In this document: positions 29,825 through 48,496 of the stretch, piece after piece
Layout: each line of letters begins with the position of its first letter
Position numbering within the stretch: position 1 is the stretch's first letter
Source of the DNA: a virus
Taxonomy: Duplodnaviria > Caudoviricetes
DNA: 64,000 nt
Direction: 5' to 3' (one strand)
IMG/VR virus record: IMGVR_UViG_3300047576_000027
Location: 1 to 64,000 of that record
The notes under the pieces: model-generated
What the model was told of the DNA's origin: nothing
Seen by the model: the letters and a program-made list of their open reading frames with translations, nothing else
Database searches by the model: none
Translations under genes and position numbers: made by a program

Positions 29825-32800
29825 TCAGTGAATAACCGCTCCCGACCCTATAATCGTCCCCGCGCCGGCTACAGCCCCCCCAACACCGGCAGAAGCCGCA
29901 GCGAGGGTGTAGGCGCCGGAAGCGGGGATGATTCCGTAGATCGAGCCTGAAGCGTCCACAGCCACATTGGTCATGCCACTGACTGCGCCGCCTGGTCCCG
30001 TCAACGTGTAATTGAAACCGCTTATCGCTGTCGGCGTGATGCCTGCGATGAGGATCTGGCCCGCAACTGTGCTCGTCAAACTTGCCGTGGTGTGCGTGGC
30101 CCCTGAGAGCGGGAACGAGACGATCCACGGGCTTGTGCCGCTTGCCTGCCAGCCGGTATGGTTCCCGTCAATTGTCCCAAGCGCCGTGATCGTGGGCAGC
30201 GTCGCGCTGGTGCCAGTGAAAGGCATGTGAACGACTGCCGTGTAACTCTGGGTGTTCGTCGCGTCAAGAGCTCCCGTCCCCGGTCCCCAGTTCAGCAAGA
30301 AGAACCCGAAACTGGTTCCTGATGTAATGTAAACCGGTTGCGGCGTAAGGATTTGGGACAACAGGCCGGTGTTAACTCCAATCGTGTTGGTGCTCGTCAC
30401 TGTGTTTCCGCTCCGTGACGTGTTGGGCGTCTGCGGGTAGTACAGGTACTCGGTTTTCGTCTCGCCGGTTGAGGTCAAATAATCTCGCATTACGATGACA
30501 AAATCCTGCGGATAGGCTGGATTTTTGAAATGGACTAAATGGGTCAGCGCATGAACGACGTTCGCCCCCGAGAGAAATGTTGCCGTCGTGTCGGCCATCC
30601 CGTACGCATGGTTGTTGTCGCCGGTCGCTCGCGGTATCGCGCAGTTCACGACATCCGTGGCGTTTACATTCGATCCGGCAGTCCCGGCAATATCGAGAAA
30701 GTTGGCGTACGGTATCCCGTCGTTGAAGGCAGACGTAGCAGGGTTCGTCAGGTCGCTGGGCAGTCCGGAACCGCCGCTTCCACTGGCGGCGTTTTCTGTG
30801 AGCAGCCAATTCCCCCGAAAAATCCGGTAACTTCCGAACGGCCCCGGCTGACCGCAGTTAACCTGGTGGTCGCAGGATTCGTACGACTGCCCTTGTAAAC
30901 TGACCCAGGTATCGGTTGCGCTGTCAAAGCCGGTGCGGGAAATCATGACATCAGCCTGGGTTCCCGATGATCCGGCATCGGTCACATTCCACGGGAAGGT
31001 CGTGGTGCTGCCGGACAGTGGCGTTTGCGTGAACGCCTGATCCGTGAAGATGAACAGCCATGCCTGCGCCGTGTTGTTCGCGGCTTCCATAACGGCGTTG
31101 GTGAAGCCCAAATTTGTTCCGGGCGTGTTTCCGAAGCCAGTCCCCGGTGCGGCCCACCGATTGTACAACCAGTAGTTTGCATACTGGCCTATCGTGGTCC
31201 CGCTATACCAGTTCGCCAGTTGAGCGAAGCCCTGAAGATTACCCGGCAGGAGTGGAGCCCCGGCAACGCCCGTCTGTCCCCATTGCACCGTAGCTGCCGC
31301 CGAACTGGGAAATGCTGTTACGTAGTGGTATTCCAGCATTCGCTGTGCCCACATGAGAGGACTGCCGAGAAGATTCGGCGGAGATGCGACCGAGTTCTGA
31401 ATCGCCATCGCGTAACCAGCCGGGTACTGAGAAGTGCGCTGAATCCCGTACCCGGAACCGGACTGATGGTAGCCAGTCCAGTATGCTTCGAAATAGGCGA
31501 ACTGCAAAGCGTACCATGAGTTATAAGAATCGGTTACTTCTGGTCCCGAGCGAGCCGATTCATTGGGATCGTCATCGAGCATGGAGAGGAGGATTTCAAT
31601 CACGCCGAACTGGGACGAGTAGTTTAGGTTCTCGGTTCTGTCCAGGCCATCCAACCCGCCGTTCGGAGGATACAGAGTTGATCCGCCACCGTTGTATGTA
31701 AGCGCCTGCGTAATCCACGGCGTATGCTTAATCGCCCACACAACGCCGCACGCGCCTGTCTGGAAGGTTTGCGCGTAGGCGTACAGGTTCTGGTAGCCGG
31801 TGATGTTCCAACTTGAGAATGATCCCGATCCGCTCGTGGCTGTCACCGTCACCGTCATAGACGTGCCGGTATAGCCGTTCGCGGGTATGGTCCCGGTCAT
31901 GAAAATGGCCGAGTTAGAGGCGTCCGTTATTTGTACCGGAGCGCCTTGCTGATAGGGAAGACCTGCCGGGACCGTGAACGTCACATTGCCGGTTCCTATG
32001 GTCATGCTCGTGCTGCTTGTCGTTGGCGTGCCGAATACCTGCACCGTCCCCGCCGCGCCCGATAGCCCAAAGGCGTGCTCCGAATCTATCACGGTTTGGA
32101 TCGATGCGACCAACCGGGACTCGGTGGGCATCATGGTCACCCAATCACCGTCGTTTACAGACGTGCCGAAGACGGCCGATTTTGTGGTGATGTACGGCGC
32201 GTAATAAGTGACCACCAGCGCCGGGTTAGCCGAGAGGTAGTTGCCGGTTGGCAACCCGAGATTTCCAACAGAGAATTGAGTTGAGGAATCTATAGAAGTT
32301 ATCGGGTAAGTGTTGTTGCCGAGGCCGGAACTTGCACCGCCAAACATGTTCACCTGGAGTCCTACCTGAAAGCCGGTGGTCGTCATCCCGGAGATGGTTA
32401 CCTGAATCCTGTTTGGATTGCCCGACAGAACAGCGAGGTTCGCCACCGTCCCGCCCGCGACTGTAAAGGTCGGATTGGAGACGTAGGCCGTCGTTGGTTG
32501 CGTCGTTTCGTTGGTGCAGGATGCCCCGGATGAGCCGCCGATGCCGCCGTACGCTGAGACATCGTTCAGCATCTTGTTCGCGAAATTAGTCCGCTCCGTG
32601 CTGTTTAACTGCGACCAGACCAGTTCATAGGCCATGATCCACTGAGGCATCCAGTAATTCACGCCCCAGTCTGCCAGCCCTGTACCTGGTCCGTTGCCCA
32701 TACAATAACCAAGGGCATCCGGCCCCGTCTCGATACAGACGAGCGCCATTGTCTTTTCGATGTTGTCGATCAGGTACTTTGCGGCTGTGAGGCTGGCCGT

Positions 32801-33109
32801 CTGCGTGTTGTCGCAGTACCAGTTGACGGCAAAGTCGAGCGCCACCGTCCCGTCTGAACTGTTGACCAGGCTCTGCTGAGTCGTGTACGAGCCGATATTG
32901 TTGCTGACGGAGTTCTGCACGGCCACCCATGCCGGGTTGGTGCTGACTCCCTTTGGGCAGGTTCCGGCGCTGTATCCGATCCGCGAGAGGATCGAACTGT
33001 TGAGCATCACTCGCGGGTGCGCCTGAACCGTGTAGCTAGTGCCGTTCAGGCTGACGGTGATCGCACTCAGGGACGGGGCGAGCGCGAGGAAGAGAAGCAA
33101 CTTTTTCAA
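29825..33109 (-). CDS. Large secreted protein, heparinase II/III- or alginate-lyase-like, with an inserted tail-fibre-type module
   Basis: Signal peptide MKKLLLFLALAPSLSA; HPRVML; alpha-helical N-part; ISRTGFD..D..V...DHQ..G.Y.I; insert TSSTSMTIGTG.VTFTV...SWNI. Confidence 0.6.
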   Translation of the reverse strand: MKKLLLFLALAPSLSAITVSLNGTSYTVQAHPRVMLNSSILSRIGYSAGTCPKGVSTNPAWVAVQNSVSNNIGSYTTQQSLVNSSDGTVALDFAVNWYCDNTQTASLTAAKYLIDNIEKTMALVCIETGPDALGYCMGNGPGTGLADWGVNYWMPQWIMAYELVWSQLNSTERTNFANKMLNDVSAYGGIGGSSGASCTNETTQPTTAYVSNPTFTVAGGTVANLAVLSGNPNRIQVTISGMTTTGFQVGLQVNMFGGASSGLGNNTYPITSIDSSTQFSVGNLGLPTGNYLSANPALVVTYYAPYITTKSAVFGTSVNDGDWVTMMPTESRLVASIQTVIDSEHAFGLSGAAGTVQVFGTPTTSSTSMTIGTGNVTFTVPAGLPYQQGAPVQITDASNSAIFMTGTIPANGYTGTSMTVTVTATSGSGSFSSWNITGYQNLYAYAQTFQTGACGVVWAIKHTPWITQALTYNGGGSTLYPPNGGLDGLDRTENLNYSSQFGVIEILLSMLDDDPNESARSGPEVTDSYNSWYALQFAYFEAYWTGYHQSGSGYGIQRTSQYPAGYAMAIQNSVASPPNLLGSPLMWAQRMLEYHYVTAFPSSAAATVQWGQTGVAGAPLLPGNLQGFAQLANWYSGTTIGQYANYWLYNRWAAPGTGFGNTPGTNLGFTNAVMEAANNTAQAWLFIFTDQAFTQTPLSGSTTTFPWNVTDAGSSGTQADVMISRTGFDSATDTWVSLQGQSYESCDHQVNCGQPGPFGSYRIFRGNWLLTENAASGSGGSGLPSDLTNPATSAFNDGIPYANFLDIAGTAGSNVNATDVVNCAIPRATGDNNHAYGMADTTATFLSGANVVHALTHLVHFKNPAYPQDFVIVMRDYLTSTGETKTEYLYYPQTPNTSRSGNTVTSTNTIGVNTGLLSQILTPQPVYITSGTSFGFFLLNWGPGTGALDATNTQSYTAVVHMPFTGTSATLPTITALGTIDGNHTGWQASGTSPWIVSFPLSGATHTTASLTSTVAGQILIAGITPTAISGFNYTLTGPGGAVSGMTNVAVDASGSIYGIIPASGAYTLAAASAGVGGAVAGAGTIIGSGAVIH

Positions 33110-34539
33110 TAGATCACCACCCCGGAACCAATAATCACTCCCGAGCCGACACTCGCGCCGCCGATTGACAGTCCCAAAGCCCCTATATTCGGCGGGTTGG
33201 AAGTGCTAACCCCCGCTATGTAAAGTCCTGCCGCGAGAGCGGGCGAGCCGGGTTGCAGATAAAAGTTTCCAGTTGACGGGCTTACCAGCAGAGGATTGGA
33301 TTCCACCGAATGAGAGCACCCGGTCGAGCCACAGTTTCCGGTCGCAGTTTCCCACGCTGAGTACGTGGAGTAGTATGTTCCGACTCCCCACTCAATGAAA
33401 TTGCTGGCCTGTACGCCGAAGGCATTGTACGTATAAACGTTCCCCGATCCGTCCGCGCCAGGATTCTCGCAACCGTTAGCAACGAGAAGTTGATTATTTG
33501 TATTTGCCTCGCTGATATTGTTTTTAATCAGATTGCTTTCGCAACCACCCGCCGTACTTCCCCCGTTCGGGCCTAGCACCTGTATTCCCGATCCACCGTT
33601 CCCCCATACCGTGTTGTTATAGATTTGATTCCCCGTCATCGAAGTTGCGCCATCTGCATAAGCGACGATTCCGCCTGCCCCGTTTCCATAGCTTATGTTG
33701 TAGTACGAAAGGGCATAGTTGTCTGCGTCAATTGCAATTCCAAAAACGTTGTTGTTGTAGATTGTGTTGAATCTGGTAGTGAACCCGTTGCCGACCGTAT
33801 CTGCCCAAATACCAGACCCGGTTGTGCTTACCTGCCCATTTCCGTTTGAAGCAGAAGTACTGTACTGAACGACCACATTTGTCGATGAAGATCCGGGGTG
33901 TATTTTGATTCCGGCAGCAAAAGCATCATTGCTTGTCGTGACATTGCCAATGGCTGTTGAATGCGTTACGAGTAAATTTGTGGCCTGATAGAACGCCAAG
34001 CCGCTTTCCTGATTCGAAGTCGCAGTATAGCCATTGACAATTACATTGGTGGTTGCGTCACAGCGAAGCCCCTCACCATTGTTGAGAGTTGTGATCCCGT
34101 TAAGGAACGTTACTCCGGTGCCTCCTAGAGAATAGATCCCCTTAGAAGTGGCTGCTGTCGTCTCCAGGCCGATAAAGGAAAGATATGACTGGCCGTTATT
34201 GTAAATCGCATAGATTCTAGTGCCGGACCCGGTTATGACAGGCATCGCACCAGACCCATACGATCCGAATGTGATCGGGTTACCGGATGAGCCACTGGAG
34301 GGGGGGATAAGCTCCTCTGCCCATGTGTCTCCAGACTGAAACAGTATCGAGTCTCCGGGACTAAAGGACTGCGCGTTAACGTGGGCTATAGTCTGCCATG
34401 CAGAGACTGTGCCGGTACAGTTAACTGCCGTCGCGGTCCCCGGATTTGAATCACTACCGGCAGAGGAATCTACACAGTAGGTCGTCGCGGAGAGTCTTAC
34501 TGATAACAGGATGGTTGCAATAATAGCCTGTCTCATCAT
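33106..34539 (-). CDS. Secreted right-handed beta-helix (pectin-lyase-like) protein
   Basis: Signal peptide; TTYCVDSSAGSDSNPGT..WQTI..VN...FSPGD.I.F..G; Asn-rich coils; F.LQPGSPA..AG..PNIGA. Confidence 0.85.
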   Translation of the reverse strand: MMRQAIIATILLSVRLSATTYCVDSSAGSDSNPGTATAVNCTGTVSAWQTIAHVNAQSFSPGDSILFQSGDTWAEELIPPSSGSSGNPITFGSYGSGAMPVITGSGTRIYAIYNNGQSYLSFIGLETTAATSKGIYSLGGTGVTFLNGITTLNNGEGLRCDATTNVIVNGYTATSNQESGLAFYQATNLLVTHSTAIGNVTTSNDAFAAGIKIHPGSSSTNVVVQYSTSASNGNGQVSTTGSGIWADTVGNGFTTRFNTIYNNNVFGIAIDADNYALSYYNISYGNGAGGIVAYADGATSMTGNQIYNNTVWGNGGSGIQVLGPNGGSTAGGCESNLIKNNISEANTNNQLLVANGCENPGADGSGNVYTYNAFGVQASNFIEWGVGTYYSTYSAWETATGNCGSTGCSHSVESNPLLVSPSTGNFYLQPGSPALAAGLYIAGVSTSNPPNIGALGLSIGGASVGSGVIIGSGVVIY

Positions 34540-36266
34540 TGCTGATTCTCCAGGTACACGATGATCTCTACGCTTCCTGCAGTGAACGTGCTGACATTGG
34601 CTCCTACGTTCGTCAGATTGATCTGGATCACCCCCTTGTCAGCAACTTGCGCCTGTGGGGAGTAGTAAGCCTGCGCTGTAGTGGTCGAGGTGAGATCAAC
34701 ATAGTTTCCGGTGCCTGTATAGGTTGTGGCGCTTCCTAGAGAATTGCCAATTGTGGCGTGTGCCGAAGTTAACCCGGAAGCCGCAAAGGCTGTATCGACC
34801 CGGACGGTTATATGGCTTACGACCTGCTTCGGGAAAAGATTCTCAAGAGTCAACGTCTGTGTCAGGCCCGCAGTTGTAAAAGCAAAATACGGGACCGTCA
34901 TCTTGTACGCAAAGGGCTGGCGCATCGCATAGGCGATTCCGTTAGCTACGGTATATGATTCCGCAAGTTGCCCTGCCGTCGTCCAATGGGTTCCAATCCC
35001 GTCGCCCTGATACACATAAGTGGCGTTGGTGTTCGTTCCATACAGAGCCGGGTTGCTGTTCAGGTCGATGACGGAATCAAAACCATTGGTCCCGGCGAGG
35101 AGGTCAGACAGGACCGTTGAGCTGAGGGTCGCTGCGGCCGTTGTCTGCGCCCCGCTGTTTCTGGTTGTGTTCAGGATTGTAGGGACGATGCACTTCGCCT
35201 GTGCGTTTAAATTATGAACGCTAGTGCAGTAGTTCGTGTAAGTGGTCGCAATACTGGCAGCGGAACTGCCGTTGTAAATGTCGTTGGTTCCTCCCTCAAG
35301 AATGACGTTAATGGGACCGGTGTATCGGTTCATTATCGAGGCTACCTGCCCCGCGAAATTAGAGTACATCGTTGCCGCTGTTTCGCCACTAAGACATATG
35401 TTATAAAATGTTGAACCGCCTCCAAGAAGCTGCACCGTTGAAATGTACTCGTAACCAGCGGCCAGATTGTAATAATTCGCAGACGTTCCGTTCGTACCGT
35501 AACCGCAAGCGATGCTGTCTCCGACGAAGATGTTAACCGGTCTGTCGAATGCCAGCCCAGCGCTCTGCGGCAAATCGCCACGAGAGTAAAGGATCTGATT
35601 TGCCGCAAAGTTGTCCTGTGCGATCTGAGCAGCGGTGAGGGCAGTCGTGTATAGACGGACCATTTTAATGGTTCCGTAGAACGGGTAAGTTCCGAAAGCG
35701 CCGCCGATGTACCCCGCCGTGGTCCCGAGTGCTGAAGTGTTGCCATCTGTAATGTATCCACCGGCGGCAAGCCCGTTTATGTACAGTGTTGTCGGAGATC
35801 CAAAGACAACTGCAACTGAGGATGGCCCGACTGTCCTATCAACTGCCTCAGTCGATCCTCCTATGGATGGCGACCCCGCCTGGTATGCTGGAAGCTGAAG
35901 GCCGCTTCCAGTGATCGGATAAACCAGAGCTTCGGCGGTCGTAGAAGAGTTAGAAGCGAACCCGGAGAACGTAGGCGTATACCAGACTTCAATCGTCTGG
36001 ACACCATTCATCGATGGGATGCTCCAGAATCCCGCTCCCCCAACAAAAACAGTCCCCAACGTGTTTGTAGTAGGTGTTCCTCCACCGGACCAGGTGCCAG
36101 CGTTACTATTGCCACTCGAATCTGGCAAGGTAGTGGTGCTGGCATCTACCATATCGTAATAAGCCAACAGCCCAGAGTTTACAAATTGGGCATTCGCCGC
36201 CACCATAGTCGCAGTTTGTCCGTGTGCCGGTATCGCCAAAACGAAAAGAAGAAGTAGTTTTTTCAT
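34536..36266 (-). CDS. Secreted LamG-like + SGNH/GDSL esterase protein
   Basis: Signal peptide MKKLLLLFVLAIPAHG; GLLAYY..DSSGN..FYG.I..VRLY..ALT; FVGDSI, GGTND, D...H. Confidence 0.8.
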   Translation of the reverse strand: MKKLLLLFVLAIPAHGQTATMVAANAQFVNSGLLAYYDMVDASTTTLPDSSGNSNAGTWSGGGTPTTNTLGTVFVGGAGFWSIPSMNGVQTIEVWYTPTFSGFASNSSTTAEALVYPITGSGLQLPAYQAGSPSIGGSTEAVDRTVGPSSVAVVFGSPTTLYINGLAAGGYITDGNTSALGTTAGYIGGAFGTYPFYGTIKMVRLYTTALTAAQIAQDNFAANQILYSRGDLPQSAGLAFDRPVNIFVGDSIACGYGTNGTSANYYNLAAGYEYISTVQLLGGGSTFYNICLSGETAATMYSNFAGQVASIMNRYTGPINVILEGGTNDIYNGSSAASIATTYTNYCTSVHNLNAQAKCIVPTILNTTRNSGAQTTAAATLSSTVLSDLLAGTNGFDSVIDLNSNPALYGTNTNATYVYQGDGIGTHWTTAGQLAESYTVANGIAYAMRQPFAYKMTVPYFAFTTAGLTQTLTLENLFPKQVVSHITVRVDTAFAASGLTSAHATIGNSLGSATTYTGTGNYVDLTSTTTAQAYYSPQAQVADKGVIQINLTNVGANVSTFTAGSVEIIVYLENQQ

Positions 36267-39031
36267 TGTCCTATCACCAGAATTTCACAACTTTCCGCTG
36301 TCATTGAAGCATTCGAGGGCAAAGTCAGCGTCGTAGTACTCGGCGACGGCGGCGGGAAAGATGTGCAGCCGGTTCCGTAAGTCATCAGTGGCACCTGAGC
36401 AAACGGAGTCAGGAAAGCGAACGTCCCTGCCGATCCTGTTTGCGCATAACCGTTGAGAGCGCACGTCACCATCTTCTGTACGCCGTTGAGGCCCATTGAG
36501 CACTGCGCGGTGCCGGATGTGCCGGTGAAGTTAGAGATGAAGGGCATTGGATTGACGCTTGCCGCGCTTGTCGTATACGTGCTCGGTATATCCGTGCTCG
36601 TGGTGCGGACGTAAGGCCCGCACGTTGACCCCAGTTCCAATTGAGCACCCGACATGTAGATCGTCTGGCCAGTAGTTCCGGTCAGTACCTGCCAGCCGCG
36701 TGATCCGTCGCTTAACTGCCCCGTGTAGCAGTACCATGTTGGGGTAGTCGTGAGCGTGTGAGTTTGCCCGTGAGTATCGTCTATGCCGATAGACAGGGAC
36801 TCGCCGCCGACCGCGCCGCGCGCCCGAATAGAAGCTGAGTACGTAAGTCCCGATGTCACTGGCAGAGAATATTCCAGCCAACCCGTGCAGGTGCTACTGG
36901 TGAGAAACTTGAGCGACGTGTAGGTGCCCCAGATGTCCTGGTAGTCTGTGGAATTTGCCGTGTAAGTGCAGGGAGTTCCTGAGAAGTACCCGTACGGAAA
37001 CCACGGGTCAAAATTAAGAGTTCCGGGATCAAACTGGGAGTACGTCAGAAGATTGCTCATGTATCCCTGCCCATATGATCCGTTGGGGGTAACGATTTGT
37101 CCCTGGCTGTTGACAACGAACTGATTCGATAACCCGGCATTGAGCGTGCTTGCCTGAAGCAGATTTATATCCAGCGTCCCCGTGCAGTTGTTCACGCCGG
37201 TGACCGTGTTCTCTATGCAGGAGTTCACTGACGGCGTGCTCACCGTCGTGGCGAACGACTCCCGAATTTTGCTGGACACCACGGCACCGAGGGAGTTTGT
37301 TTCGCCGTCCCCGACGTAGTTTTGTTCCATTGTGCTGGTGTAAAGTTCGACGCCTGCCGTGGACTGCGCAAAGTAGGTTCCGTACGTTGCGGAATTGAAG
37401 TGAACGTCCTTGATATCGATGTCGGCAACTGCCGTTCCGCTTGGCCCGTCGAAATTGATGACCCGGAATCCGCCTTCCTGTGCGACGTTATCGACTTCGG
37501 TCCTGTTGTGCCCGGTGTTGCCGCTCGTGCCCTTGTTCCTGAACGTGATGCCCGTGCCGGCTGATCCGGTGCTCATGTAGCCGTTCAGGTAGTGGTGCTC
37601 CCCATAACTGGAACTTGTCGAAGCGTCAACGATGAGGACGTGACTGGTCGTGGTCATGCTGAAATCGTTGAAATGGAAGCCGTCAACCCAAATGTCAAGG
37701 TTGCTCTCCGCAACTGATGGCAGACCGCCGCCGACGCCGAGATCGTCGTAGCCGGACGTGTACCAGGCGTAGAGAGCGCCGCCGCCGTTGTTGAGATAAA
37801 CACTCGGGTTTTCCCAGTGATCTTCTTCAGAGGCAATCGAGTAAATGGCGGCCACTGAAGCGGTTCCCTCAAAGCTGCAATTCCGGAAGTTGTACTTGCC
37901 CGCGAAACTCGTCGGAGAAGCTGTCGGCCTGCCGAGCAGCAAAATCACCTTCGGATAAATCACCGAAGAAGTTATGGTGGACTCGAAATTCATCTGGTCG
38001 ATATCGACCGTGTAGGCACCGACGAAAGTGAACGCCGCCGGTTGACTACCACCAGTTTGCGGTTCGTAGTCCAGATAGCATCCTGAGCCGTGGCCACGGA
38101 TGTTCATCTTGTTCAGGGCACCAAAATTTACCGGCGAGTGAACCACGTACACGCCTGCGGAAACAGTGCAGGGGAAGTAAAGAGTCTGGCCCTCGGTCAA
38201 AGCGGCAATCGCATCGGCTATGGGGGTATCGTTATTCGTACTCCCGTCCGAGATCGCCCCGAAGTCCTCAACGCTTACGAGTTGTCTCTCCTTCGCCTGA
38301 ACTCCCTGCGGAACCGCCCCGGACCCTGCCGCCGTGAACTTGCCCAGCGGGTAAGTGCCGGTGCTGTCCAGTGTGTTGAGCACTCCAGAGACGTTGCAAA
38401 TGAACTCCGCGCCGGCCGGAACCGTACCCGTACAGGTGCCGTTCGTGAGGCCGAAGATTCCACTCGTACCGCCGAACCACGCGAGTGCTGGAGGTGTTGC
38501 ACCAGTTGCGATAGAGGTTGCCGAGAATGGCTCCGTGGTCGAGACGGCAGTGCCGTTATCGGTGATGCTGGATGCGATTGCGCTGCCTGCGGAATTACCC
38601 TTGAGGACGCTGGCGGTACTGGCTACATTTGCCCCATTGCCAGACAGACAAAAGACACTGCCGATGTATGAGAAGAGGTACGTGGTCCCGGCCACAAGTC
38701 CGCCAGAACCAACGGGCGTGCTGCAATTCGACTGGTCAAGCTGGACGGGACCGAGTCCCGCTACGTTCAGGGTTGAAGTTCCCGTATTCGTGTTGTTGGG
38801 GACGAATGAAACGATCAGGCCGGTCAAAGTCGTCACGGTCGGTGTCGGTGTCGGGCAAGTGTAGGTTGTAGTGCTGGCACCCGCAGAAGAACAAGCGGTG
38901 TTGTTGCCTGATCCAGGAGGGCCAGGCGTTCCCCCGCTGCCCCCCGGCGGGTTAATGATGACCTGTCCAAACGCCAAAGAAGCGAATATCAGCCCGAATG
39001 CGACCTTTCTTGCTCCCACGTTTATTTCCAC
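36263..39031 (-). CDS. Tailspike-like beta-helix protein with signal peptide
   Basis: Signal peptide ..RKVAFGLIFASLAFG-Q; NTGTSTLNVAGLGP; FTAAGSGAVPQGVQAKERQLVSVEDFGAISDG..ND (tailspike neck / Pectate_lyase_3 start); CBM-like YMSGAQLELG. Confidence 0.8.
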   Translation of the reverse strand: MEINVGARKVAFGLIFASLAFGQVIINPPGGSGGTPGPPGSGNNTACSSAGASTTTYTCPTPTPTVTTLTGLIVSFVPNNTNTGTSTLNVAGLGPVQLDQSNCSTPVGSGGLVAGTTYLFSYIGSVFCLSGNGANVASTASVLKGNSAGSAIASSITDNGTAVSTTEPFSATSIATGATPPALAWFGGTSGIFGLTNGTCTGTVPAGAEFICNVSGVLNTLDSTGTYPLGKFTAAGSGAVPQGVQAKERQLVSVEDFGAISDGSTNNDTPIADAIAALTEGQTLYFPCTVSAGVYVVHSPVNFGALNKMNIRGHGSGCYLDYEPQTGGSQPAAFTFVGAYTVDIDQMNFESTITSSVIYPKVILLLGRPTASPTSFAGKYNFRNCSFEGTASVAAIYSIASEEDHWENPSVYLNNGGGALYAWYTSGYDDLGVGGGLPSVAESNLDIWVDGFHFNDFSMTTTSHVLIVDASTSSSYGEHHYLNGYMSTGSAGTGITFRNKGTSGNTGHNRTEVDNVAQEGGFRVINFDGPSGTAVADIDIKDVHFNSATYGTYFAQSTAGVELYTSTMEQNYVGDGETNSLGAVVSSKIRESFATTVSTPSVNSCIENTVTGVNNCTGTLDINLLQASTLNAGLSNQFVVNSQGQIVTPNGSYGQGYMSNLLTYSQFDPGTLNFDPWFPYGYFSGTPCTYTANSTDYQDIWGTYTSLKFLTSSTCTGWLEYSLPVTSGLTYSASIRARGAVGGESLSIGIDDTHGQTHTLTTTPTWYCYTGQLSDGSRGWQVLTGTTGQTIYMSGAQLELGSTCGPYVRTTSTDIPSTYTTSAASVNPMPFISNFTGTSGTAQCSMGLNGVQKMVTCALNGYAQTGSAGTFAFLTPFAQVPLMTYGTGCTSFPPPSPSTTTLTLPSNASMTAESCEILVIGQ

Positions 39032-39411
39032 GTGAACGACACCCCGTCTCCGCTGTTTGTGGCGTCAATGTAAATCTGCCCGAGGTTCCACGACTGCGCA
39101 TTCCCAATCGGATTGCAGGCGTAGGAAGCTCCCGGCTGCCCTGCGGTGAGGGGTGGCCCGAGTGGCGTCCCTTTCTTGTTTGCCGCTGATACCCCGCTGT
39201 CGAAGCCGATCCATATCGTTCCCGAATTTGTAGAGTTCGCGGTGATCGTGCATACCGTTGCCATCGTCGGCGGATTGGTGACGTAAAGTTGAACCGGAAC
39301 GCCAGACGTGGTAACGGTGGTCGATCCCTGGTGAACAGCCTGAGCGAAAAGGGAGGCAACGAAAAGGGCCAAAACGCAGAAGGATCGGGCGCGATACATG
39401 GCACGGTACAT
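39022..39411 (-). CDS. Small secreted beta-sandwich protein
   Basis: Signal peptide ..FCVLALFVASLFA-Q; NSGTIWIG, GTPL, NLGQIYID..GDGVSF. Confidence 0.7.
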   Translation of the reverse strand: MYRAMYRARSFCVLALFVASLFAQAVHQGSTTVTTSGVPVQLYVTNPPTMATVCTITANSTNSGTIWIGFDSGVSAANKKGTPLGPPLTAGQPGASYACNPIGNAQSWNLGQIYIDATNSGDGVSFTWK

Positions 39412-39417: not shown

Positions 39418-39480
39418 ATTGTATATCGTTGAAACTAAACGATAATTAAACTTGTAATCGGGAATTGAAACTGTTAAAAT
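39418..39480. promoter_or_regulatory. Divergent promoter region with possible operator
   Basis: - strand: TACAAT 6 nt before ATG 39411. + strand: TTGTAA-17-TAAAAT. Inverted TATCGTT/AACGATA and direct TTGAAACT x2. Confidence 0.6.
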
Positions 39481-40238: not shown

Positions 40239-41423
40239 ATGCGCCCCCTGAAATTCCGAAAACTGTCCACACCGCTGCTTATAATCGGGGACAACCCGGC
40301 TTTCCTGGGCGGACTCTCGCGGATCGGCAGGGATATCGCCACGCTGGCCTGTACGATGCCGGAGTTCAGGATTGGCTATCTCGGGCGAGGATGCGGAAAC
40401 ACGCGACGGTTCCCGTTCGTTACCTACAACTTTCCGGAAGGCGACAACTGGGGAGAGAATCGGATTGAAGGCGTCTGGAAGGATTTCTCGAACGGGGTTG
40501 ATGGTGTCATCCTCACGACCGACGATCTGTCCCGGCGCGGATGGTTCGCGAACCCCCCAATGTACGGCACGCTGGCGAATTTTTTAGGCGAGGGCCGGTC
40601 ATTTCAGAAGTGGGCGTACACGCCCCTTGATTCATGCGGTCCAAACGGGTCAACGCTTGGAGTAGAAACCAGAATGACGGCGATGGGGTATGACCGCATT
40701 CTGACCCCTTCGGAGTGGGGGCGGGACGTTCTGATTCGGAGCGGCAGGCCGGATGCGGACTGGCTGCCTCATGGCCTGTTTATGGATGTATTTGCCATTG
40801 ACCCCAAGCCCCACGAAAAGATCGGATGGAATCCCGATGATGTCCATGTTGGGTTCGTCGCCAGCAATCAGGCACGTAAGGACTTCCCGGTCGCATTTGA
40901 GACGGCAGCACATCTGAAAGAGAAGTACGGGAACAGGTTCCATCTGTGGGTGCATACAGACACTCCCGTAAGATACTGGAACATTTATGCCCTCGCCGCT
41001 GATTATGGCGTTAACAGTTGCCTGATTCTCACCACGGACATGAATGATGCGGAACTGGCACTGAGGTATGCGGCCTGTGATTGTACAATTTTGCCGAGTG
41101 CAGGCGAGGGGTTCGGATACACCATCGCGGAGTCACTCGCCTGCGGAACCGCCTGCGTAGTGACAGATTATGCCGCCGGCCAGGAAATTGTCGAAGAGTC
41201 CTGCCGGGTCAAGCCGGTCACATTCCGGGTAGACACAATCTATAACGTCCAGCGTGCCGTGTTGTCAGGCTGGGGGTTCGCCGCCGCCGCTTACGGCCAG
41301 ATTGAGGAAAAACGAAAGGACCGCGAGTATCGGTCAGAGCAGTTACGGGAGAGCGTGGCGCACCTCCGTTGGGAGCGGTTGAAGTATCCGTGGATGAAGT
41401 GGCTGAGGCAGGGACTGAAATGA
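40239..41423 (+). CDS. GT4 glycosyltransferase
   Basis: GGLSR, LPHG, VGFVASNQARKDFP, YAACD..ILPSAGEGFGYTIAESLACG..VVTDY. Confidence 0.9.
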   Translation: MRPLKFRKLSTPLLIIGDNPAFLGGLSRIGRDIATLACTMPEFRIGYLGRGCGNTRRFPFVTYNFPEGDNWGENRIEGVWKDFSNGVDGVILTTDDLSRRGWFANPPMYGTLANFLGEGRSFQKWAYTPLDSCGPNGSTLGVETRMTAMGYDRILTPSEWGRDVLIRSGRPDADWLPHGLFMDVFAIDPKPHEKIGWNPDDVHVGFVASNQARKDFPVAFETAAHLKEKYGNRFHLWVHTDTPVRYWNIYALAADYGVNSCLILTTDMNDAELALRYAACDCTILPSAGEGFGYTIAESLACGTACVVTDYAAGQEIVEESCRVKPVTFRVDTIYNVQRAVLSGWGFAAAAYGQIEEKRKDREYRSEQLRESVAHLRWERLKYPWMKWLRQGLK

Positions 41424-42871
41424 GTTGCACAAAACCGAGGTTTTTCTATCCTGATCTCCCATGCTTGCTCCCCGATGGCCATATTGGGCCTTGCCACGTC
41501 CCAGGTAATACACCGAGTGCTGTTGTTGCCAGTCCCGAGCCCGTTCCATATGACGGTAATGCAGAAACTCACGGCCATACTGGTCCAGAATACGCACGCG
41601 TCGCGCTTCCTTCCAGCGTCCAGTTAGACCACCTGGAAGAAATCTGCGCCCTCTACGACAAGGCTTTTGGCGACTACCCGGAGCATGCCCATGAAGGAGA
41701 TTACGTCTTTCGGTTTATAAAAGCAGTCGTAGCGGCAGAGTCTGTCGGAGAAATTGACTACGCTGATCCGGATGCCACGATGAACATCATGCGGTCGATT
41801 GCCAACAGTCTGTTCTATGAATAACAATTCCACTCACATCATCCGCCACTACGCCGCGAAATTCGGACCCGACAAGCGTCCGTCCATCAGCCAGCTTTAC
41901 AGGTCCAATGATCAGATGGTCATCGGTATCCGTGAAGGCGTGAAAGTCGCATGGGGCGAAGACCCCAAAGCACAACAGGGCCGCGCTTTCGCCAGCGAAG
42001 AAGCGGCACTGAAGTTTTTAAGGCGAATCGCGGACCTCGATCAGGGTGTCCGCAAAGGGCACGTCTGCAAAGCCTGCGGATTCGCCCCGGCGGAACTCAT
42101 GGTGTGCCCGGAGAATAACGACGGGGCACACCGGATCGACCACGATCCTTCGGCGCGGATTGAAGAGATTGACGGGGAGTCGCGGGTGGCGAGGTTGAAT
42201 TGAAATGTGGTGGCCGAATAAAATTCCAGAAGCTCGAATATCGGCATCTTCACAGCCGGAATATCGTCCTCCCGATTTTAGGGATTTAATAAGGCAGTTC
42301 GGGACGCGGAATGACATCAATCGGTTGATGGCGATCTTTGTCATCACTGGTGAATCAATTCCTGGATTCAGCATCTCGGAGAGTCAGGTAATTTGTGATT
42401 GCTATTTCGTCTCAGCGTGCGGTGCGCTTGCACTCGTTGGTGACCTTTGGAAAGACAAATTCAGGCCAGTCAAGTGACTATCGAGATTGTCCGGATCACA
42501 ATGGGTGACCGTCGTGAAGCGTAAGTGGATTTCCGAAGATGAGATGCGCGCATTTATGCGTATTGCCGTGGAGCGGGAATGGGGGGACTGAACCGTATCG
42601 CGGTTACGAATTCAAAGGGATTGGATGGTGGTCGGTGGATTGTTCTTTTCGCGCTTATGCCTACATGCATAACTCTCCGCTCCACCCGTGCGACATGATG
42701 TATGTCGATTGTGTCGTGGATGACTGGACGGATTATAGACATTATGGTGAAGCAGTCGCGGCGAATACCGTAGCGAGCCTAAAGCGGCTGATCGACAAGG
42801 CCCACGACGATCCCACGAGTTTCAAGCCGACGAAGCTGGCCTCGTCACATATGGTCGAGTATGCGGATTGA
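41420..42871 (+). CDS. Four hypothetical ORFs inside the glyco operon
   Basis: 41420-41824, 41817-42203, 42205-42477, 42539-42871. Confidence 0.5.
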
Positions 42872-43586
42872 ACCCTGCTCCGTCATCTGCGCAGGCAAAG
42901 GCCCCTGGCTTCCCGGTCGCGGACGCCTGCGCTTAATCCACAACGAAGACAACCGCATGACGCCGTGTCAGGCTTACCAGAAGGCACTCAATCAGACCAA
43001 GGCGGAGGTGCTGGTGATGATTCATGAGGACGTGACGATCAGAGATCCGCATTGGTTGGCGATGATCCACGATCTGTTCGTGCCGATCTTTGACACTGGT
43101 GACCCCCGAGAGCCTAACCCGATAGTCGCGGCCGGGCTGGGGGGTGGAACGTCGCTGGGACGTCCTGATCTGTACCGGAAACCATTCAATATCTGGAACC
43201 TGGCACGCGGGGGATATGCGAGTAATCAGTCCGATGCCGAGGTTCACGGTGAGCGTTTTACTGGCGTAAAACGAGTTGCAGTGCTGGATGCTTTCGTCAT
43301 GGCGGTGCGGGTTGAGTGGTTGCGGCGGCGGGGCGGCTGGCCAGTAGATAATCTGACCTTTCACTGCCTGGACCTTTGGCTGGCCTGTGAGGTTGCGCGG
43401 GATGATAAGGAGATTTGGATGTACGGAGCGGATTGCACGCACCACGGCGGCGGGGTGAGCGTGACGGATAAATATAAAGATGCCGGGTGGCTACAGGGAG
43501 GAACGCTTTCGGAGGATCATTTGGCTCCGCACCGGTGGTTGGCGAATGTGTACCGCGACGTTTTGCCGATTGAGGTAAAGCGATGA
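42861..43586 (+). CDS. GT-A (GT2-like) glycosyltransferase
   Basis: AYQKAL...LVMIHEDV, VAVLDAFVMA, FHCLDL.LA, H.GG. Confidence 0.75.
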   Translation: MRIEPCSVICAGKGPWLPGRGRLRLIHNEDNRMTPCQAYQKALNQTKAEVLVMIHEDVTIRDPHWLAMIHDLFVPIFDTGDPREPNPIVAAGLGGGTSLGRPDLYRKPFNIWNLARGGYASNQSDAEVHGERFTGVKRVAVLDAFVMAVRVEWLRRRGGWPVDNLTFHCLDLWLACEVARDDKEIWMYGADCTHHGGGVSVTDKYKDAGWLQGGTLSEDHLAPHRWLANVYRDVLPIEVKR

Positions 43587-44329
43587 CTAATATCGTAATC
43601 GTCAGCCGCGGCCGGATAAATCTGCTTCGCCAAACCATTGAGTCCCTGTCCAAAAACACGGACAAGAATACATTCACGCTAACCATAGTTTCCGACGAGG
43701 GCGCGGATGGCGACTTTCGATGTACCAGATACTTGCAGTCGCTGAACCGCAAGCACGTCTCGATCCTGGAGGTCCAGAATTCCGGTCATGTGCTGGCGCA
43801 ATTGAAAAACCTCGGGGCTTATTATTCTGAGCAGAGATTCGGGCGCGCGGACTGGTTGTATTTGAGTGACTCGGACGTTTACTTTCTTCCCGGATGGATG
43901 GACCAGTTGACCACTTTAGCCGTCCACAGCGAATGGGACGGATTTAAGTTGTGGGGCGGCCAAGTTCATCCATTTCATCATCCTCAGGAGGGCGGATCAT
44001 GGTGTCTGGCTCTACGATGCAGGTATGCCGCCGCGCAACAGCTGCACGATCTCACTATGTATGATTATTCCGTCCTCGACGGCCCCTCGTGGCTGATGCG
44101 ATGGTCAACGTGGGACTCAATTGGCCCGCTATCGCGTACCTGCGCCCTTGGCGCCTGCCAGTCCGAAGACGCCGAATGGTGTTCGCGGCTTGTTGCTTCC
44201 GGCGGCCGCATCGGCGTAATTCAGCCTCATGTAGTGATTCACACCGGCCTAGCTAATTCAAATGGCGATCCCGCCCCCGGCTTTGCCGAACGTCGCGCGC
44301 TGATACCCCCCGGAGTACTTGCAGAATGA
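43583..44329 (+). CDS. GT2 glycosyltransferase
   Basis: IVIVSRGR..LL.QTIESL, IVSD, KNLG, LSDSDVYFLPGW, SEDAEW..R. Confidence 0.85.
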   Translation: MTNIVIVSRGRINLLRQTIESLSKNTDKNTFTLTIVSDEGADGDFRCTRYLQSLNRKHVSILEVQNSGHVLAQLKNLGAYYSEQRFGRADWLYLSDSDVYFLPGWMDQLTTLAVHSEWDGFKLWGGQVHPFHHPQEGGSWCLALRCRYAAAQQLHDLTMYDYSVLDGPSWLMRWSTWDSIGPLSRTCALGACQSEDAEWCSRLVASGGRIGVIQPHVVIHTGLANSNGDPAPGFAERRALIPPGVLAE

Positions 44330-44880
44330 CCTTTGGCTCCGTAATGCAGTTCACCCGAAAAATATCCAGTCCGACCGCATTTGAAGACGAGGAATGCATG
44401 GCATACTACCATCTGCTGTGTTCGCTGGCGAGCGGGTCATCGATTCTGGAAATCGGACTTCAGTTCGGGCGATCATCGTCCATCGCATTGCAGGTTGCGG
44501 CGCATAACGACCTGGAGTACTACGGGGTGGACCCGTTTACCGATCCGCCGGAAGCGAAAGATGCGTGGGTCGCAATGGCTGGGTCTGTCAGCGACTGGCG
44601 ATCCGTGTCGTATACGAAATCTGCCGATGTGAATCCTAACTGGTGGCCCCAGTCCATCGGTCTCGCCCTGATCGACGGTGATCATTCCGCAACTGGCGTG
44701 CGAACAGACTGCAATCTCGTTATGCCGCGCATCACACCTCGCGGGTACATATGCTTCCACGACTACGGCCGGGATTCGCTACCGGATGTTTTCGCAACCG
44801 TGAATGAGATGATGATCGGGACGCCGTTCTGGCACGTCGCTACGGTCGGAACTTTGGGGATTTGGCAGAGGAATGCTTAG
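44326..44880 (+). CDS. Class I SAM methyltransferase (Methyltransf_24-like)
   Basis: ILEIGLQFGRSS, YGVDPF, LIDGDHS...V..D, ICFHDY. Confidence 0.88.
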   Translation: MTFGSVMQFTRKISSPTAFEDEECMAYYHLLCSLASGSSILEIGLQFGRSSSIALQVAAHNDLEYYGVDPFTDPPEAKDAWVAMAGSVSDWRSVSYTKSADVNPNWWPQSIGLALIDGDHSATGVRTDCNLVMPRITPRGYICFHDYGRDSLPDVFATVNEMMIGTPFWHVATVGTLGIWQRNA

Positions 44881-45499
44881 ACTGAATTGCGGATCCGGGC
44901 AAAGACGCTTCGGGTTTCCGCGTCTTCGCGTAACGGAAGAACACCCGTGCGAACTTTGCAGAGAAACAAAAGCGTGGCATCGCGAGCCGGTGAGTCGGCC
45001 AGCTTTCCCCCATCGCTACGTCCCCGGTGGCCCCAATGCCTGGGTGAACGTTGACATCAACCCGCGATGGAAGCCGGATATCGTGGCAGACTGCGCGTCC
45101 ATGCCGATGTTCGCGGACGGAAGTGCGGAATTGATTGTGGCGCATCATCAGGCAGAGCATATGCCCCTGGACGGGTCAAAGACATTTTTTACTGAATGCC
45201 ACCGGATACTCGCACCGGATGCGTCACTCCTGATTTTCGTTCCCGATCTAACGGCACTCGTAAAGGCATGGTCTGAGAGCCGCATCAGCGACTACATTTT
45301 CTGCGTTAATCTTCACGGTGCATTTATGGGTGCTGATGCTGACATTCATAAATGGTCATTCACCGCCAGGACGCTCAAAGAACATCTGTTGAAGTCTGCC
45401 CCGTGGTCAGAGGTTAAGCCTTTCGACTGGCGGAAGATTCCGGGGGCAGACATCGCGGGTCCGGATTTTTGGATTCTGGCTATCGAAGCGGTGAAGTGA
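44873..45499 (+). CDS. Class I SAM methyltransferase (Methyltransf_11-like)
   Basis: LRLNCGSG, WVNVD, PDIVAD...PMFADGS, EH, ECHRIL.P, VPD, H...F; ~40-aa insertion after motif I. Confidence 0.85.
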   Translation: MLRLNCGSGQRRFGFPRLRVTEEHPCELCRETKAWHREPVSRPAFPHRYVPGGPNAWVNVDINPRWKPDIVADCASMPMFADGSAELIVAHHQAEHMPLDGSKTFFTECHRILAPDASLLIFVPDLTALVKAWSESRISDYIFCVNLHGAFMGADADIHKWSFTARTLKEHLLKSAPWSEVKPFDWRKIPGADIAGPDFWILAIEAVK

Positions 45500-45567: not shown

Positions 45568-46199
45568 TCACTCGCACTGAATGGTGTTCTGGTTGAACTT
45601 CTTCTTTTCACACGCCTTCGCACCATCTTCGTAGGCTTTGTTCAATTCAGCCGCCGCGGAGTCATACTGGGCTTTGGCGATAAAGTAGTTGCGCTGCGCA
45701 ATGGCGATGGACGTTCGTATCTTATCCGGAATCACCGGCAACGCTTCTTTGGTTTCCTGAGCGAACAAAAGAGAACCGAGGAAAAGAAGGCAGAGTATGC
45801 GCATTATTTCATTACCAGCCCAGCGGCTTTCCGCGTCGACGTCGCTACGAGATCCTCAACCGTGAAAGATGTATTCGTGACCGGGCCACCGAGGTTAACC
45901 AGCACGCCCGTGTAGCCTTCCGGGTTATCCAGCCTGCCCGTCACTCCGGAAATGGTTCTGACGGTTCCGTCCGCAAGCGTGCCGGTTACAGAATACGCAT
46001 ATCCAAGGACGGCCGAATTCTGCGTTCCGATCAGGAGAATATATTGCTCATTGCCGGGGACGAAGCCGTTGCAAAGTCCTTGGGGGGGCACTGCTGACTC
46101 ACACAGTTGCCACGGACCAGCGGCTATAAGGACCATATCGGAATTTTGGGAGATCGCGGGACTTGCAGCGATAAAAAGAAGGGAGACAATGGTTTTCAT
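45568..46199 (-). CDS. Two small secreted proteins downstream of the tail fibre (45804-46199; 45568-45804 coiled coil, chaperone-like)
   Basis: Signal peptides MKTIVSLLFIAASPAIS-Q and MRILCLLFLGSLLFA-Q; each mature part has two Cys. Confidence 0.65.
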
Positions 46200-46235: not shown

Positions 46236-46252
46236 GGGTAATCTGAGTCTTT

Positions 46253-48496
46253 TTACGGGCAAATATTAACCACGCTGGAGTTGTTTATCAGGGAACCGGT
46301 GGGTAACCCCGAGCAAGACGTGGGGAGCGATCCCATCTGAACTTTCCCGACTGTATGCAATGCGTTCCCCGTACTTGTGTTCTGCCCGTATACCGCATCG
46401 CCCGTACTGGAAGAGAGTCCGCTCAGGCCGTTGCCAGTACCAGTCTGGACCACAGCAAACCCCGATCCTGCCGTTGCGAGCGTAACCGCGATGCCTGCAT
46501 TGGCCGAGAGCGCAATACCAGATCCGGATTGCTGGATGTTGATTCCCTCCGTGGAATTATTGACCGTCACGGTTTCAAGTCCCGTTATTTGAGTTGCGCC
46601 CGTTATGTTGGTGGCCCCCGCAACAAGACTGCCATTTATCGTTACGCCAGACTGGAACGTCGCCCCGCCAGCGCTGTTAAGGTTGGCCGTACCGCTGGGA
46701 CCAAACGTGAGCGGGCCGCCGACCAGATTTGCAGATTCGGTATACAGGTTATTGAAATAGTGGGATGCGTCCCCCAAGGTTGTGTTGGCCGTCACTGGAG
46801 TGATCTCGCTGGCACCGCTGCCGGTCAGGGTAATATTCGGCCCAAACGTCGGACTATCCAACGGCCCGACATTTTGCAGATGGGTTCCGGAAAGCGTTCC
46901 TGATACAGATAATGCCGCCAGCGATGTGGCCCCAGGGGTAACGGTGAGACTCGTGAACGTTGGCGTGTTGCCGCCAGTGACAACACACGCCCATGCGGTC
47001 CCGTTAAATACGCGCAGGCACGACAGCGAATCATCCCAGTACAACATGCCCTGCACCAGTCCCTCGCCCCAACTCAGAGGGTTTGTGACGTAGGCAATCG
47101 TAGATGTGATATTCCCGCAACACCAGCCGACGAACGCCCCGCTGATGTGGTTGCTGACAGGGGCGACCGTCAATGGAACGGTGAGACTGCCGATGGTGTA
47201 AGATCCGGCTACGGTAACACTTTCCGGAGAACTGTCCTCAAACGTTATCTGTACGCCGGGGGCAAGGCCGCCAGCGTTATTAACCAGCATGGACGTACTC
47301 ACGCCCCCGGTGAGCGCGCCGGTAATTTTCGCACTTGCGGGAGGTCCCGCTGAATGCCCGACGTCTACGTGACCACCGAGGTAAGCATCGGCACCAATAG
47401 TTCCCGTCGTCGTTATGGTGCCAGCCGGATAAAGAACACCGCCGACGTAACTGTTCGATGTGATCCCGCCATAGTTGGTGATGGCATCGTAGTATTTGCT
47501 GTCGGTCGCGTACCCCCCGCGAAAGAAGGCATAGCCGTTTGAATTGAATCCGTAAATGGACTCTACAGGGAGAGGCTTCGTGCATCCGGATTGCCCCTCA
47601 TCCTGCCAGGTAAGTCCGCCATCGCTCGTTGTTCCGCCAGAATCGTTAAACGTCGGGATGGCAGCCCCGGAGAGTCCTGTTCCGGTCGCCTGCTGTATGT
47701 GGCCGGCCGGGTCAACAATTTGAAACTGGATCGGATAAATAGTCGATGCGGCCCAGTTCGGAGACATCACGGGAGACGTACCGGACCATAGCACGGTGTC
47801 AGTCGGGCCAAAAGTCCCGATTGGCTGAGTCACAATGTTGTGCCCGAGCGTGTCATAACAAATATCAGCGGGCAGAGCCGGATTCGGATTATACAGCGTG
47901 GGTGGAATCACCAGCACGTCTTCAAACGACGGAGTTGTCGGATCGAACGCGGTCAGTGCTCCCCATGTAATCGGACTCGGTATGCCGCCTCCACTGGCTT
48001 TCACGTCGTACGGCCCGTTATCGGGATAGAAATACCAATAGCCTGTGGGACTGGCCGTGAATGGGTTCGTCAGGATGGTTCCGTTATTATCAGAAAAGAT
48101 CGCCGCTGGGGCGTTCACTGGCATGGAGTAGGAAACGTCCGTCTGGACGCCCGCGCTGGCGGTGATATTGAGCGTCGTGGGCGACGTGACGGAAGATATA
48201 GTGTAGGGTGTTCCGGAGATTGTGATCTGAAGATTGGACCATTCTCCGCTGGTGTTGAATGTGCCGCTGCTGGTTAAGGTAACGGTCGTGCCAGATGTCG
48301 AGACCGTGCCGGTTAAGCCGCCAGCGTAAAACACCGAGAGACTGCAAGAGGGGTAGCTCTGCTGCACCTTTGTCACCGACTGCACTCCGGACGTCACCAC
48401 CACCTGGCCACCCTGTGTACAGTAGCCTGAAACGCGGGCACGGGCGAAAAGAGACGGGGCGAGAATCAAAAACAGCAAGGCTACGCGCTTCAGCAT
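46253..48496 (-). CDS. Tail-fibre-like protein with signal peptide
   Basis: Signal peptide MLKRVALLFLILAPSLFA; AIFSDNNG..TNPFTA..TGYWYFY.DNGPYDV (fibre N-terminal attachment-type motif); WAASTIY..DGGLTW module; GMLYWDD..LRVFNGTAW; end LPTSCSGLPTG.L.NNS.VV.ICP. Confidence 0.75.
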   Translation of the reverse strand: MLKRVALLFLILAPSLFARARVSGYCTQGGQVVVTSGVQSVTKVQQSYPSCSLSVFYAGGLTGTVSTSGTTVTLTSSGTFNTSGEWSNLQITISGTPYTISSVTSPTTLNITASAGVQTDVSYSMPVNAPAAIFSDNNGTILTNPFTASPTGYWYFYPDNGPYDVKASGGGIPSPITWGALTAFDPTTPSFEDVLVIPPTLYNPNPALPADICYDTLGHNIVTQPIGTFGPTDTVLWSGTSPVMSPNWAASTIYPIQFQIVDPAGHIQQATGTGLSGAAIPTFNDSGGTTSDGGLTWQDEGQSGCTKPLPVESIYGFNSNGYAFFRGGYATDSKYYDAITNYGGITSNSYVGGVLYPAGTITTTGTIGADAYLGGHVDVGHSAGPPASAKITGALTGGVSTSMLVNNAGGLAPGVQITFEDSSPESVTVAGSYTIGSLTVPLTVAPVSNHISGAFVGWCCGNITSTIAYVTNPLSWGEGLVQGMLYWDDSLSCLRVFNGTAWACVVTGGNTPTFTSLTVTPGATSLAALSVSGTLSGTHLQNVGPLDSPTFGPNITLTGSGASEITPVTANTTLGDASHYFNNLYTESANLVGGPLTFGPSGTANLNSAGGATFQSGVTINGSLVAGATNITGATQITGLETVTVNNSTEGINIQQSGSGIALSANAGIAVTLATAGSGFAVVQTGTGNGLSGLSSSTGDAVYGQNTSTGNALHTVGKVQMGSLPTSCSGLPTGSLINNSSVVNICP

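Follow-up and report, generated by a model that had tools for sequence, protein, structure and literature searches.

Textbooks place the assembly of tailed phages wholly in the cytoplasm, and podovirus tailspikes of the P22 type are made there without a leader. Why, then, should a tailed phage encode tailspike- and fibre-like proteins that begin with Sec signal peptides? Such genes are present in virus record IMGVR_UViG_3300047576_000027, a 107.6-kb genome (107,603 bases) of which the first 64 kb were analysed here as the window. An earlier note had proposed that eight minus-strand genes in two modules of this window specify an exported receptor-binding apparatus. By sequence comparison, the tailspike and other host-surface-directed proteins of this podovirus lineage were shown to carry predicted Sec leaders of the cleavable type, and the head, adaptor, nozzle, needle and ejection proteins to be leaderless. 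The genes concerned, and those used for comparison, are:

29825-33109, minus strand: 1094-aa exported protein, polysaccharide-lyase-like by inspection, with the same kind of C-terminal tag as the 477-aa protein
33106-34539, minus strand: 477-aa exported right-handed beta-helix with a short Gly/hydrophobic C-terminal tag
34536-36266, minus strand: 576-aa exported protein with a lectin/LamG-like domain and an SGNH/GDSL esterase domain, a candidate polysaccharide deacetylase
36263-39031, minus strand: 918/922-aa exported tailspike-like protein with leader, fibre-like neck, beta-helix and 19 Cys
39022-39411, minus strand: leader-bearing small beta protein of 125-129 aa that heads the cassette
45568-45804, minus strand: 78-aa leader-bearing coiled coil with a C-terminal Cys, from a small family
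45804-46199, minus strand: leader-bearing small protein of 131 aa with 2 Cys, for which no family or relative was found
46253-48496, minus strand: 747-aa exported tailspike/fibre with a Sec leader, a head-binding-like anchor (about residues 20-185) and a Gly/Ser/Thr-rich fibre body
51355-57800, minus strand: needle/tip and ejection-type proteins, assigned by position; leaderless and nearly Cys-free, used as internal control
57809-61265, minus strand: tail nozzle-like gene without leader, assigned by position and homology to Tunturi_1 gp31
61615-62949, minus strand: SU10-type head-tail adaptor (PF24175) without leader
63274-64000 (genome 63274-65202), minus strand: 3' part of a leader-bearing spike gene, 10 Cys
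65109-67259 of the genome: second leader-bearing spike gene, 10 Cys, C-terminus matching the phrog_17312 tail protein

All eight minus-strand open reading frames (ORFs) of the two modules were found in place, with the N-termini, motifs and Cys spacings that had been described. Leaders were called by a heuristic rule of our own, not by a trained predictor; the rule required a basic n-region, an uncharged hydrophobic core of 8 residues and small residues at -3/-1. The claim that all eight genes have signal peptides held: seven passed the strict and all eight the loose form of the rule, the 477-aa gene passing only the latter, as an Arg lies close to its cleavage site. Both further spike genes (genome 63274-65202 and 65109-67259), which lie inside the morphogenesis operon upstream of the adaptor, passed too. 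Under the loose rule leaders were called for 10/10 genes of the spike set versus 0/15 head, tail, ejection and terminase genes (Fisher p=3e-7), and for 0.1% of 3,275 internal pseudo-starts. The core tail and ejection genes at 51-63 kb were confirmed to be leaderless. The start of the 922-aa ORF is probably a GTG four codons in, which corrects the protein to 918 aa. The closely spaced Cys residues were present as described, but the number of Cys was odd in three of the eight proteins (9, 7 and 19), and exported and core proteins could not be told apart by total Cys content alone (9 Cys in the nozzle). Virion-appendage motifs could be recognised in the 747- and 922-aa proteins, but not in the 477- and 1094-aa proteins.

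The anchor domain of the 747-aa protein includes a beta insertion of about 70 residues and a conserved Cys pair. Fifteen viral contigs share the capsid protein (62-81% identity). Most relatives examined have cassettes of large, Gly/Ser/Thr-rich, Cys-containing leader-bearing proteins, which vary in position and lie on either strand. A leader-bearing orthologue of the 747-aa protein was found as one copy in each of 7/7 long relatives, so that the signal peptide is kept in related genomes as the earlier note had asked, and by this comparison the gene is a core gene of the clade. The C-terminal bodies of the orthologues differ; in three relatives the body is a PF12708 beta-helix, and the window copy is fibre-like and has no Pfam match in this part. 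The leader-bearing anchor gene lies directly between adaptor and nozzle in seven loci (L010, L068, L069, L076, L088, L090, L135), and the same slot is also used by leaderless forms (L063, L073, L075, L098, L127). The window copy is displaced by about 13 kb from the adaptor, which is presumed to be the docking partner of the anchor domain.

A profile of the mature N-terminal 100 residues retrieved 6,472 clusters at 50% identity. Its five best sequence matches in the PDB were tailspikes or head-binding domains of Pan3 and Pam1, all of them weak (E 0.02-0.6). An Atlas lead assigned the anchor to PF09008 (Head_binding, score 0.87), and the nearest structures were viral clusters. The AlphaFold2 model of the anchor (predicted local distance difference test, pLDDT, 82) matched best the Pam1 head-binding domain (7eeq; Z 8.5, root-mean-square deviation 3.4, 87 aligned residues), followed by P22 gp9N (Z 7.2) and Sf6 gp14N (Z 6.7), and Foldseek with this model gave no match at E<=0.001. 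Sequence searches of Pfam, PHROG and PDB were blank at useful thresholds for the 1094-, 922-, 747-, 131- and 129-aa proteins. Sequence, fold and gene slot all mark the 747-aa family as one of true tailspikes. Since the leader occurs in the window copy and in 60/83 copies of the comparison set described below, the 747-aa protein is not an ordinary tailspike of the P22/Pam1 type.

This set of 83 non-redundant anchor copies, 60 leader-bearing and 23 leaderless, provides a natural experiment. Some members are truly leaderless: in L063 the start codon overlaps with the stop of the adaptor gene, and in P0078 it follows that stop by three bases. A Cys pair at fixed positions was present in 58/60 leader-bearing versus 0/23 leaderless copies. 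The leader-bearing forms have 41 conserved columns, 39 of which carry the same residue in the leaderless forms; only the two columns of the Cys pair differ. Among 133 full-length representatives, a hydrophobic core was seen in 133/133, Ala or Gly at -1 in 115/133 and a net positive n-region in 125/133, and Pro at -4 and short Leu-rich cores were frequent. Identity was 33% in the leader and 56% in the domain, and the predicted +1 residue coincided with the start Met of the leaderless forms. The whole-protein Cys count was even in 96/118 (p=3e-12). The 129-aa family showed a similar but noisier split: besides the window gene, five relatives with a leader have 2-4 Cys, and of four relatives without a leader three have 1 Cys and one has 4.

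The co-variation of leader and Cys pair, together with the register of cleavage, supports export and oxidative folding well, as had been proposed. We read these data to mean that the leaders are probably really cleaved and that the oxidatively folded domain retains its original docking job. Export by Sec and signal peptidase I to the periplasm with disulfide formation is, on this comparative evidence, highly probable.

Cultured phages with the same trait exist. Among phage records, the capsid protein has relatives only in Tunturi_1 and Tunturi_2, phages of Tunturiibacter (Acidobacteriota), and relatives of the spike gene are present on contigs binned with Acidobacteriota. From these matches the host is probably a member of the Acidobacteriota; no relative of the capsid gene was found among GTDB genomes. 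In Tunturi_1/2 the anchor spike is gp12, which has both the leader and the Cys pair; leaders are also present on gp13, gp14, gp16 and gp17. The core proteins of Tunturi_1 are leaderless, and no leaderless tailspike was seen in this phage; we saw only its large nozzle, a short needle-like protein and one of 124 aa with a tail-fibre annotation. The fibres of Tunturi_3, which infects the same host strain, and of Tunturi_4, from the same genus, are leaderless and Cys-poor. This rules out that the leaders are imposed by the host; the trait belongs to the phage lineage. Tunturi_1 and Tunturi_2 are podoviruses with clear plaques, and annotations of integrase or recombinase genes are limited to Tunturi 3-5. 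Signal peptides are nowhere mentioned in the paper, which does not report proteomics either (PMC11924767). The suggestion that the proteins are displayed by a lysogen is thus disfavoured for Tunturi_1/2.

The sole experimental hint that leader-bearing proteins reach particles comes from Cellulophaga phage phi18:3. Its gp085-087 are annotated as "structural protein, experimental MS/MS proteomics" (MS, mass spectrometry), all three have Sec leaders, and gp087 matches tail and tail-fibre PHROGs. The likeness between the C-terminus of gp086 and a 716-aa spike was not significant.

We propose the following sequence of events. Host Sec and signal peptidase I would export the spikes to the periplasm, where the disulfides would form and cleavage would restore the N-terminus of the leaderless relatives. 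Lysis of the holin type would then join cytoplasm and periplasm, and it is implied by a lysozyme gene that has no export signal:

20746-21285, plus strand: phage lysozyme (PF00959) without export signal

Holin lesions are large, and the P22 tailspike can join finished heads as a last step. In the same manner, the anchor spike may bind to the tail base of finished particles as the last step of assembly, a step in which we have moderate confidence. That the anchor spike reaches the virion by this export-then-lysis route is, by a narrow judgement, the fate we favour, and the leader-bearing genes of Tunturi_1/2 and the mass spectrometry annotation of phi18:3 lend it indirect support. The unanchored 922-, 576-, 477- and 1094-aa proteins might hang on the anchor spike or on the 129-aa protein, or might act free on capsule or exopolysaccharide; here our confidence is weak.

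These other proteins of the cassettes are not all of one kind. The beta-helix of the 918/922-aa protein is related to leaderless phage tailspikes (32-46% local identity) and its C-terminal part is putatively carbohydrate-binding; a single-sequence AlphaFold model of the 922-aa protein was unusable (pLDDT 32). The 576-aa protein matched PF13472 at 45 bits versus a curated cut-off of 32.9. The 129-aa protein is a candidate hub or base for the spikes. Genes of the 78-aa coiled-coil family usually lie right after the anchor-spike gene, and a paralogue is present at 19537-19869 on the plus strand. For the 78-aa protein, which had been considered a probable chaperone, no relevant match was found in Pfam or PHROG, known chaperones included; its gene position and its small leader-bearing family are the leads to its role, which may be that of a chaperone or a spanin.

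In the 477- and 1094-aa proteins the enzyme-like body begins directly after the leader; there is no particle-binding N-terminal module, and the named relatives are secreted cell proteins. Members of the 477-aa family are frequent among the proteins that Acidobacteriota cells secrete, those of Terracidiphilus and Sulfotelmatobacter among them. For the 1094-aa protein, the closest relative (P0157) is encoded in a cellular exopolysaccharide locus with Wzy, Wzx and glycosyltransferase genes, where it adjoins an exported fibre-like gene related to the fibres of the phage cassettes. A search of 301 genomes sampled from the phylum, run without a positive control, did not find the 1094-aa protein itself. 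The view that all eight genes specify appendages is not supported, as the 477- and 1094-aa proteins are closest to secreted cell proteins; judged by sequence, they are host-type secreted enzymes and not spikes. Their short Gly/hydrophobic C-terminal repeat is common to phage-borne and some cellular relatives and may be a docking or sorting tag. Since the strict tag pattern was found in only 3/58 non-anchor exported proteins (1/763 others), the tag stays a qualitative lead.

Related arrangements were seen in other loci. A resolvase element without recognised tailed-phage genes in the locus (L161:4163-11392) carries a five-gene leader-bearing fibre/beta-helix cassette, which includes a close relative of the 477-aa protein. 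A cellular exopolysaccharide locus (L162:6274-11498) encodes an exported fibre-like protein and a tagged 1165-aa relative of the 1094-aa protein and is a host counterpart of the cassette. The protein of a relative at L029:12758-13462 (G001:32758-33462) ends, by inspection, in a PEP-CTERM-like tail, a host-type sorting signal.

The origin of the 477- and 1094-aa proteins bears on the main rival explanation, according to which the exported proteins never join the particle. They would remove or mask capsule and exopolysaccharide, acting in the periplasm, at the cell surface or as free proteins after lysis, and so ease release or block superinfection or re-adsorption to debris; the virion would adsorb via its leaderless nozzle and needle. 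This would fit the abundance of the 477-aa family among secreted proteins of Terracidiphilus and Sulfotelmatobacter, the position of P0157 beside an exported fibre-like gene in a Wzy/Wzx/glycosyltransferase locus, the shifting of the cassettes around the genome on either strand and the presence of an orphan anchor spike in a host chromosome. The anchor itself, however, keeps the conserved residues of leaderless orthologues of the virion type, occurs once per long relative and often between adaptor and nozzle, and the leader-bearing proteins of phi18:3 carry a structural annotation from mass spectrometry. The anchor spike is also rare in cells (apart from the known case, 1/300 genomes sampled from the phylum), the family being overwhelmingly phage-borne. 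For the exported set as a whole we consider this explanation less likely than attachment, while for the 477- and 1094-aa enzymes export without attachment to the virion is the somewhat better bet. It is improbable that the virion pool is cytoplasmic, made from a second internal start, by leaky export or by removal of the leader by a phage protease, and that only the remainder is exported. It would be allowed by a Met at +1 or close to it in 20/133 representatives and by an ATG that is in register with the start of the leaderless forms in 10/60 loci. None of these ten ATGs is preceded by a Shine-Dalgarno-like sequence, however, and a start codon is missing at this position in 46/60 leader-bearing genes, the window gene among them, so that we rejected dual translation starts as a general explanation. 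In a cytoplasmic protein there would be little reason for a Cys pair strictly linked to the leader, and no maturation protease was noticed in the genome in a search that was not exhaustive. Least probable is that the leaders are uncleaved membrane anchors or signal-arrest-release (SAR) segments, with tails completed at the inner membrane or spikes freed on depolarisation. SAR endolysins are known to work by signal-arrest-release, and a hydrophobic N-terminus alone cannot discriminate; the strong -3/-1 small-residue pattern, the frequent Pro at -4 and the short Leu-rich cores are nevertheless typical of signal peptidase I substrates, and the predicted cleavage is in register with the leaderless starts.

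Several observations weigh against attachment of exported spikes to the virion, or limit the evidence for export. The leader calls come from our own heuristic, and export in this clade is predicted from sequence. A quick tree needs 4 changes of the leader/Cys state, of which 1 is forced by well-supported branches; as multiple origins are only weakly forced, a Fisher p-value for leader and Cys pair overstates independence. Phages L081 and L139 each have two anchor spikes in tandem, one with and one without a leader, and leaderless candidates for adsorption exist (the large nozzle, the needle and Tunturi_1 gp33). The anchor fold is a common transthyretin-like sandwich, and its Z scores are tied with those of non-phage domains (3e8v, Z 8.4). 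An Acidobacteriota chromosome contains an orphan leader-bearing anchor spike (L151:9920-12385) with no phage genes seen 10 kb to either side, and cells encode the same kinds of exported fibre and tagged enzyme in the exopolysaccharide locus L162. Phi18:3 is an unrelated Bacteroidota phage, and mass spectrometry of a virion preparation is compatible with co-purifying vesicles or free protein. Export followed by docking at lysis remains our preferred reading for the anchor spike. Only tentatively do we extend it to the view that virion assembly is divided by the inner membrane in a widespread group of tailed phages. The DNA-filled particle would be built in the cytoplasm together with its adaptor, nozzle and needle. 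The receptor-binding spikes and fibres, and with them polysaccharide enzymes that were captured from the host and dock via the short C-terminal tag, would be Sec-exported, disulfide-bonded in the periplasm and attached only during lysis.

The virus was recovered from peat metagenomes (peat soil). A peat metagenome of a second study covers the region with almost no differences, so the sequence is not an assembly artefact. Metatranscriptome contigs overlap parts of genes on both strands, and this coverage is unable to show expression. A split terminase with homology to Tunturi_1 gp1, the portal (phrog_156) and the major head protein (phrog_9953) lie at the edge of or outside the window. Portal, head protein, SU10-type adaptor, nozzle-like gene and needle/ejection genes identify the virus as a podovirus. 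The nozzle-like gene consists here of two overlapping frames (860 + 351 aa) and is a single piece of about 1140 aa in most relatives; G003 and G010 have a break near the same point, with additional ORFs inserted. An 855-aa protein of the head-tail region (L001:5208-7775, genome 67208-69775) represents a tandem duplication of a gene of about 420 aa that is single-copy in all relatives examined. A small serine recombinase of the resolvase type (PF00239) is encoded at L002:6521-7192 (genome 88521-89192), and no integrase was noticed.

Between the two modules lies a cluster of glycan genes:

40239-45499, plus strand: glycosyltransferase/methyltransferase cluster, with a further GT2 gene at 48681-49394 (plus strand)

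The cluster comprises GT4, three GT2-like and methyltransferase genes, and five of its genes are kept in 7/7 long relatives. It was looked for in Tunturi_1 and not found, so it is not required for leader-bearing spikes. The substrate may be virion protein, DNA or a surface glycan of the host. A second glycan-related pair at 16927-18815 (plus strand) consists of a Stf0-like sulfotransferase (weak, E 5e-4) and a glycosyltransferase-like ORF of 369 aa, the latter recognised by inspection. Further leader-bearing plus-strand genes are located at 15677-16324, 19537-20667, 24172-24573 and 24985-25407; these plus-strand genes, which may have spanin-like roles, include two lipoproteins and the 78-aa coiled-coil paralogue near the lysozyme gene. 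An 11-bp motif, with one mismatch allowed, was found at four sites (window 39447-39457 and 48547-48557; genome 86277 and 88218), each copy oriented as -35 box for a nearby divergent gene (the glycosyltransferase operons and two minus-strand genes). We had considered the motif upstream of both modules as a shared late promoter and rejected this, because a -35 box of the divergent plus-strand genes is more likely.

If the proposed route is true, periplasmic maturation of the receptor-binding apparatus would be an extra stage of morphogenesis. The phages would gain disulfide-stabilised spikes and could add secreted host enzymes to the set with few alterations, and many genes for secreted carbohydrate enzymes in soil viruses, often called auxiliary metabolic genes, would have to be read differently. 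This is a very large family, with more than 6,000 clusters for one domain, and leader-bearing and leaderless orthologues are available from nature. Cultured Tunturi_1/2, with Tunturi_3 as same-host control, and phi18:3 make the question testable in existing isolates.

Literature searches, with most subscription journals outside their coverage, revealed no report of exported tail parts in any tailed phage and no comment on the leaders of phi18:3. The known podovirus tailspikes (P22 gp9, Sf6 gp14, Pam1 PDB 7EEQ, Pan3 PDB 9VYG/9VYH; PF09008) share with the 747-aa family the anchor fold, a weak sequence likeness, the layout of an anchor with an exchangeable beta-helix or fibre body, and a gene position beside adaptor and nozzle. 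They are leaderless, however, whereas the 747-aa family has a Sec leader and an added Cys pair that travel together. Tunturi_1/2 (PP887698, PP885685) have homologous terminase, portal, capsid, adaptor and nozzle proteins (22-28% identity, Tunturi_1) besides the gp12 anchor with leader and Cys pair, but they are distant, and no glycosyltransferase cluster was found in Tunturi_1. Gp085-087 of phi18:3 (KC821620; Pachyviridae) are likewise large tail- or fibre-type proteins with Sec leaders, Gln at +1 and a structural MS/MS annotation; they differ in being Cys-poor (0-3) and in coming from an unrelated lineage and host phylum, and homology to the window proteins was not shown. Tailed phages also use the general secretion of the host for signal-peptide and SAR endolysins, spanins and genes of Porphyromonas phages, but these products act on the envelope. 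In Porphyromonas phages signal peptides were reported on unknown non-tail genes, and no tail part was named (Matrishin et al. 2023, PMC10367356). Exported tailspike- or fibre-like bodies are encoded by cells as well, as reported for Pantoea WceF (PMC7949094) and as seen in the exopolysaccharide locus L162; these genes are chromosomal and outside a virion module, whereas the anchor family described here is overwhelmingly phage-borne. The parts are thus of known kinds, their combination departs from the cytoplasmic, leaderless tailspike, and the assembly step is possibly new.

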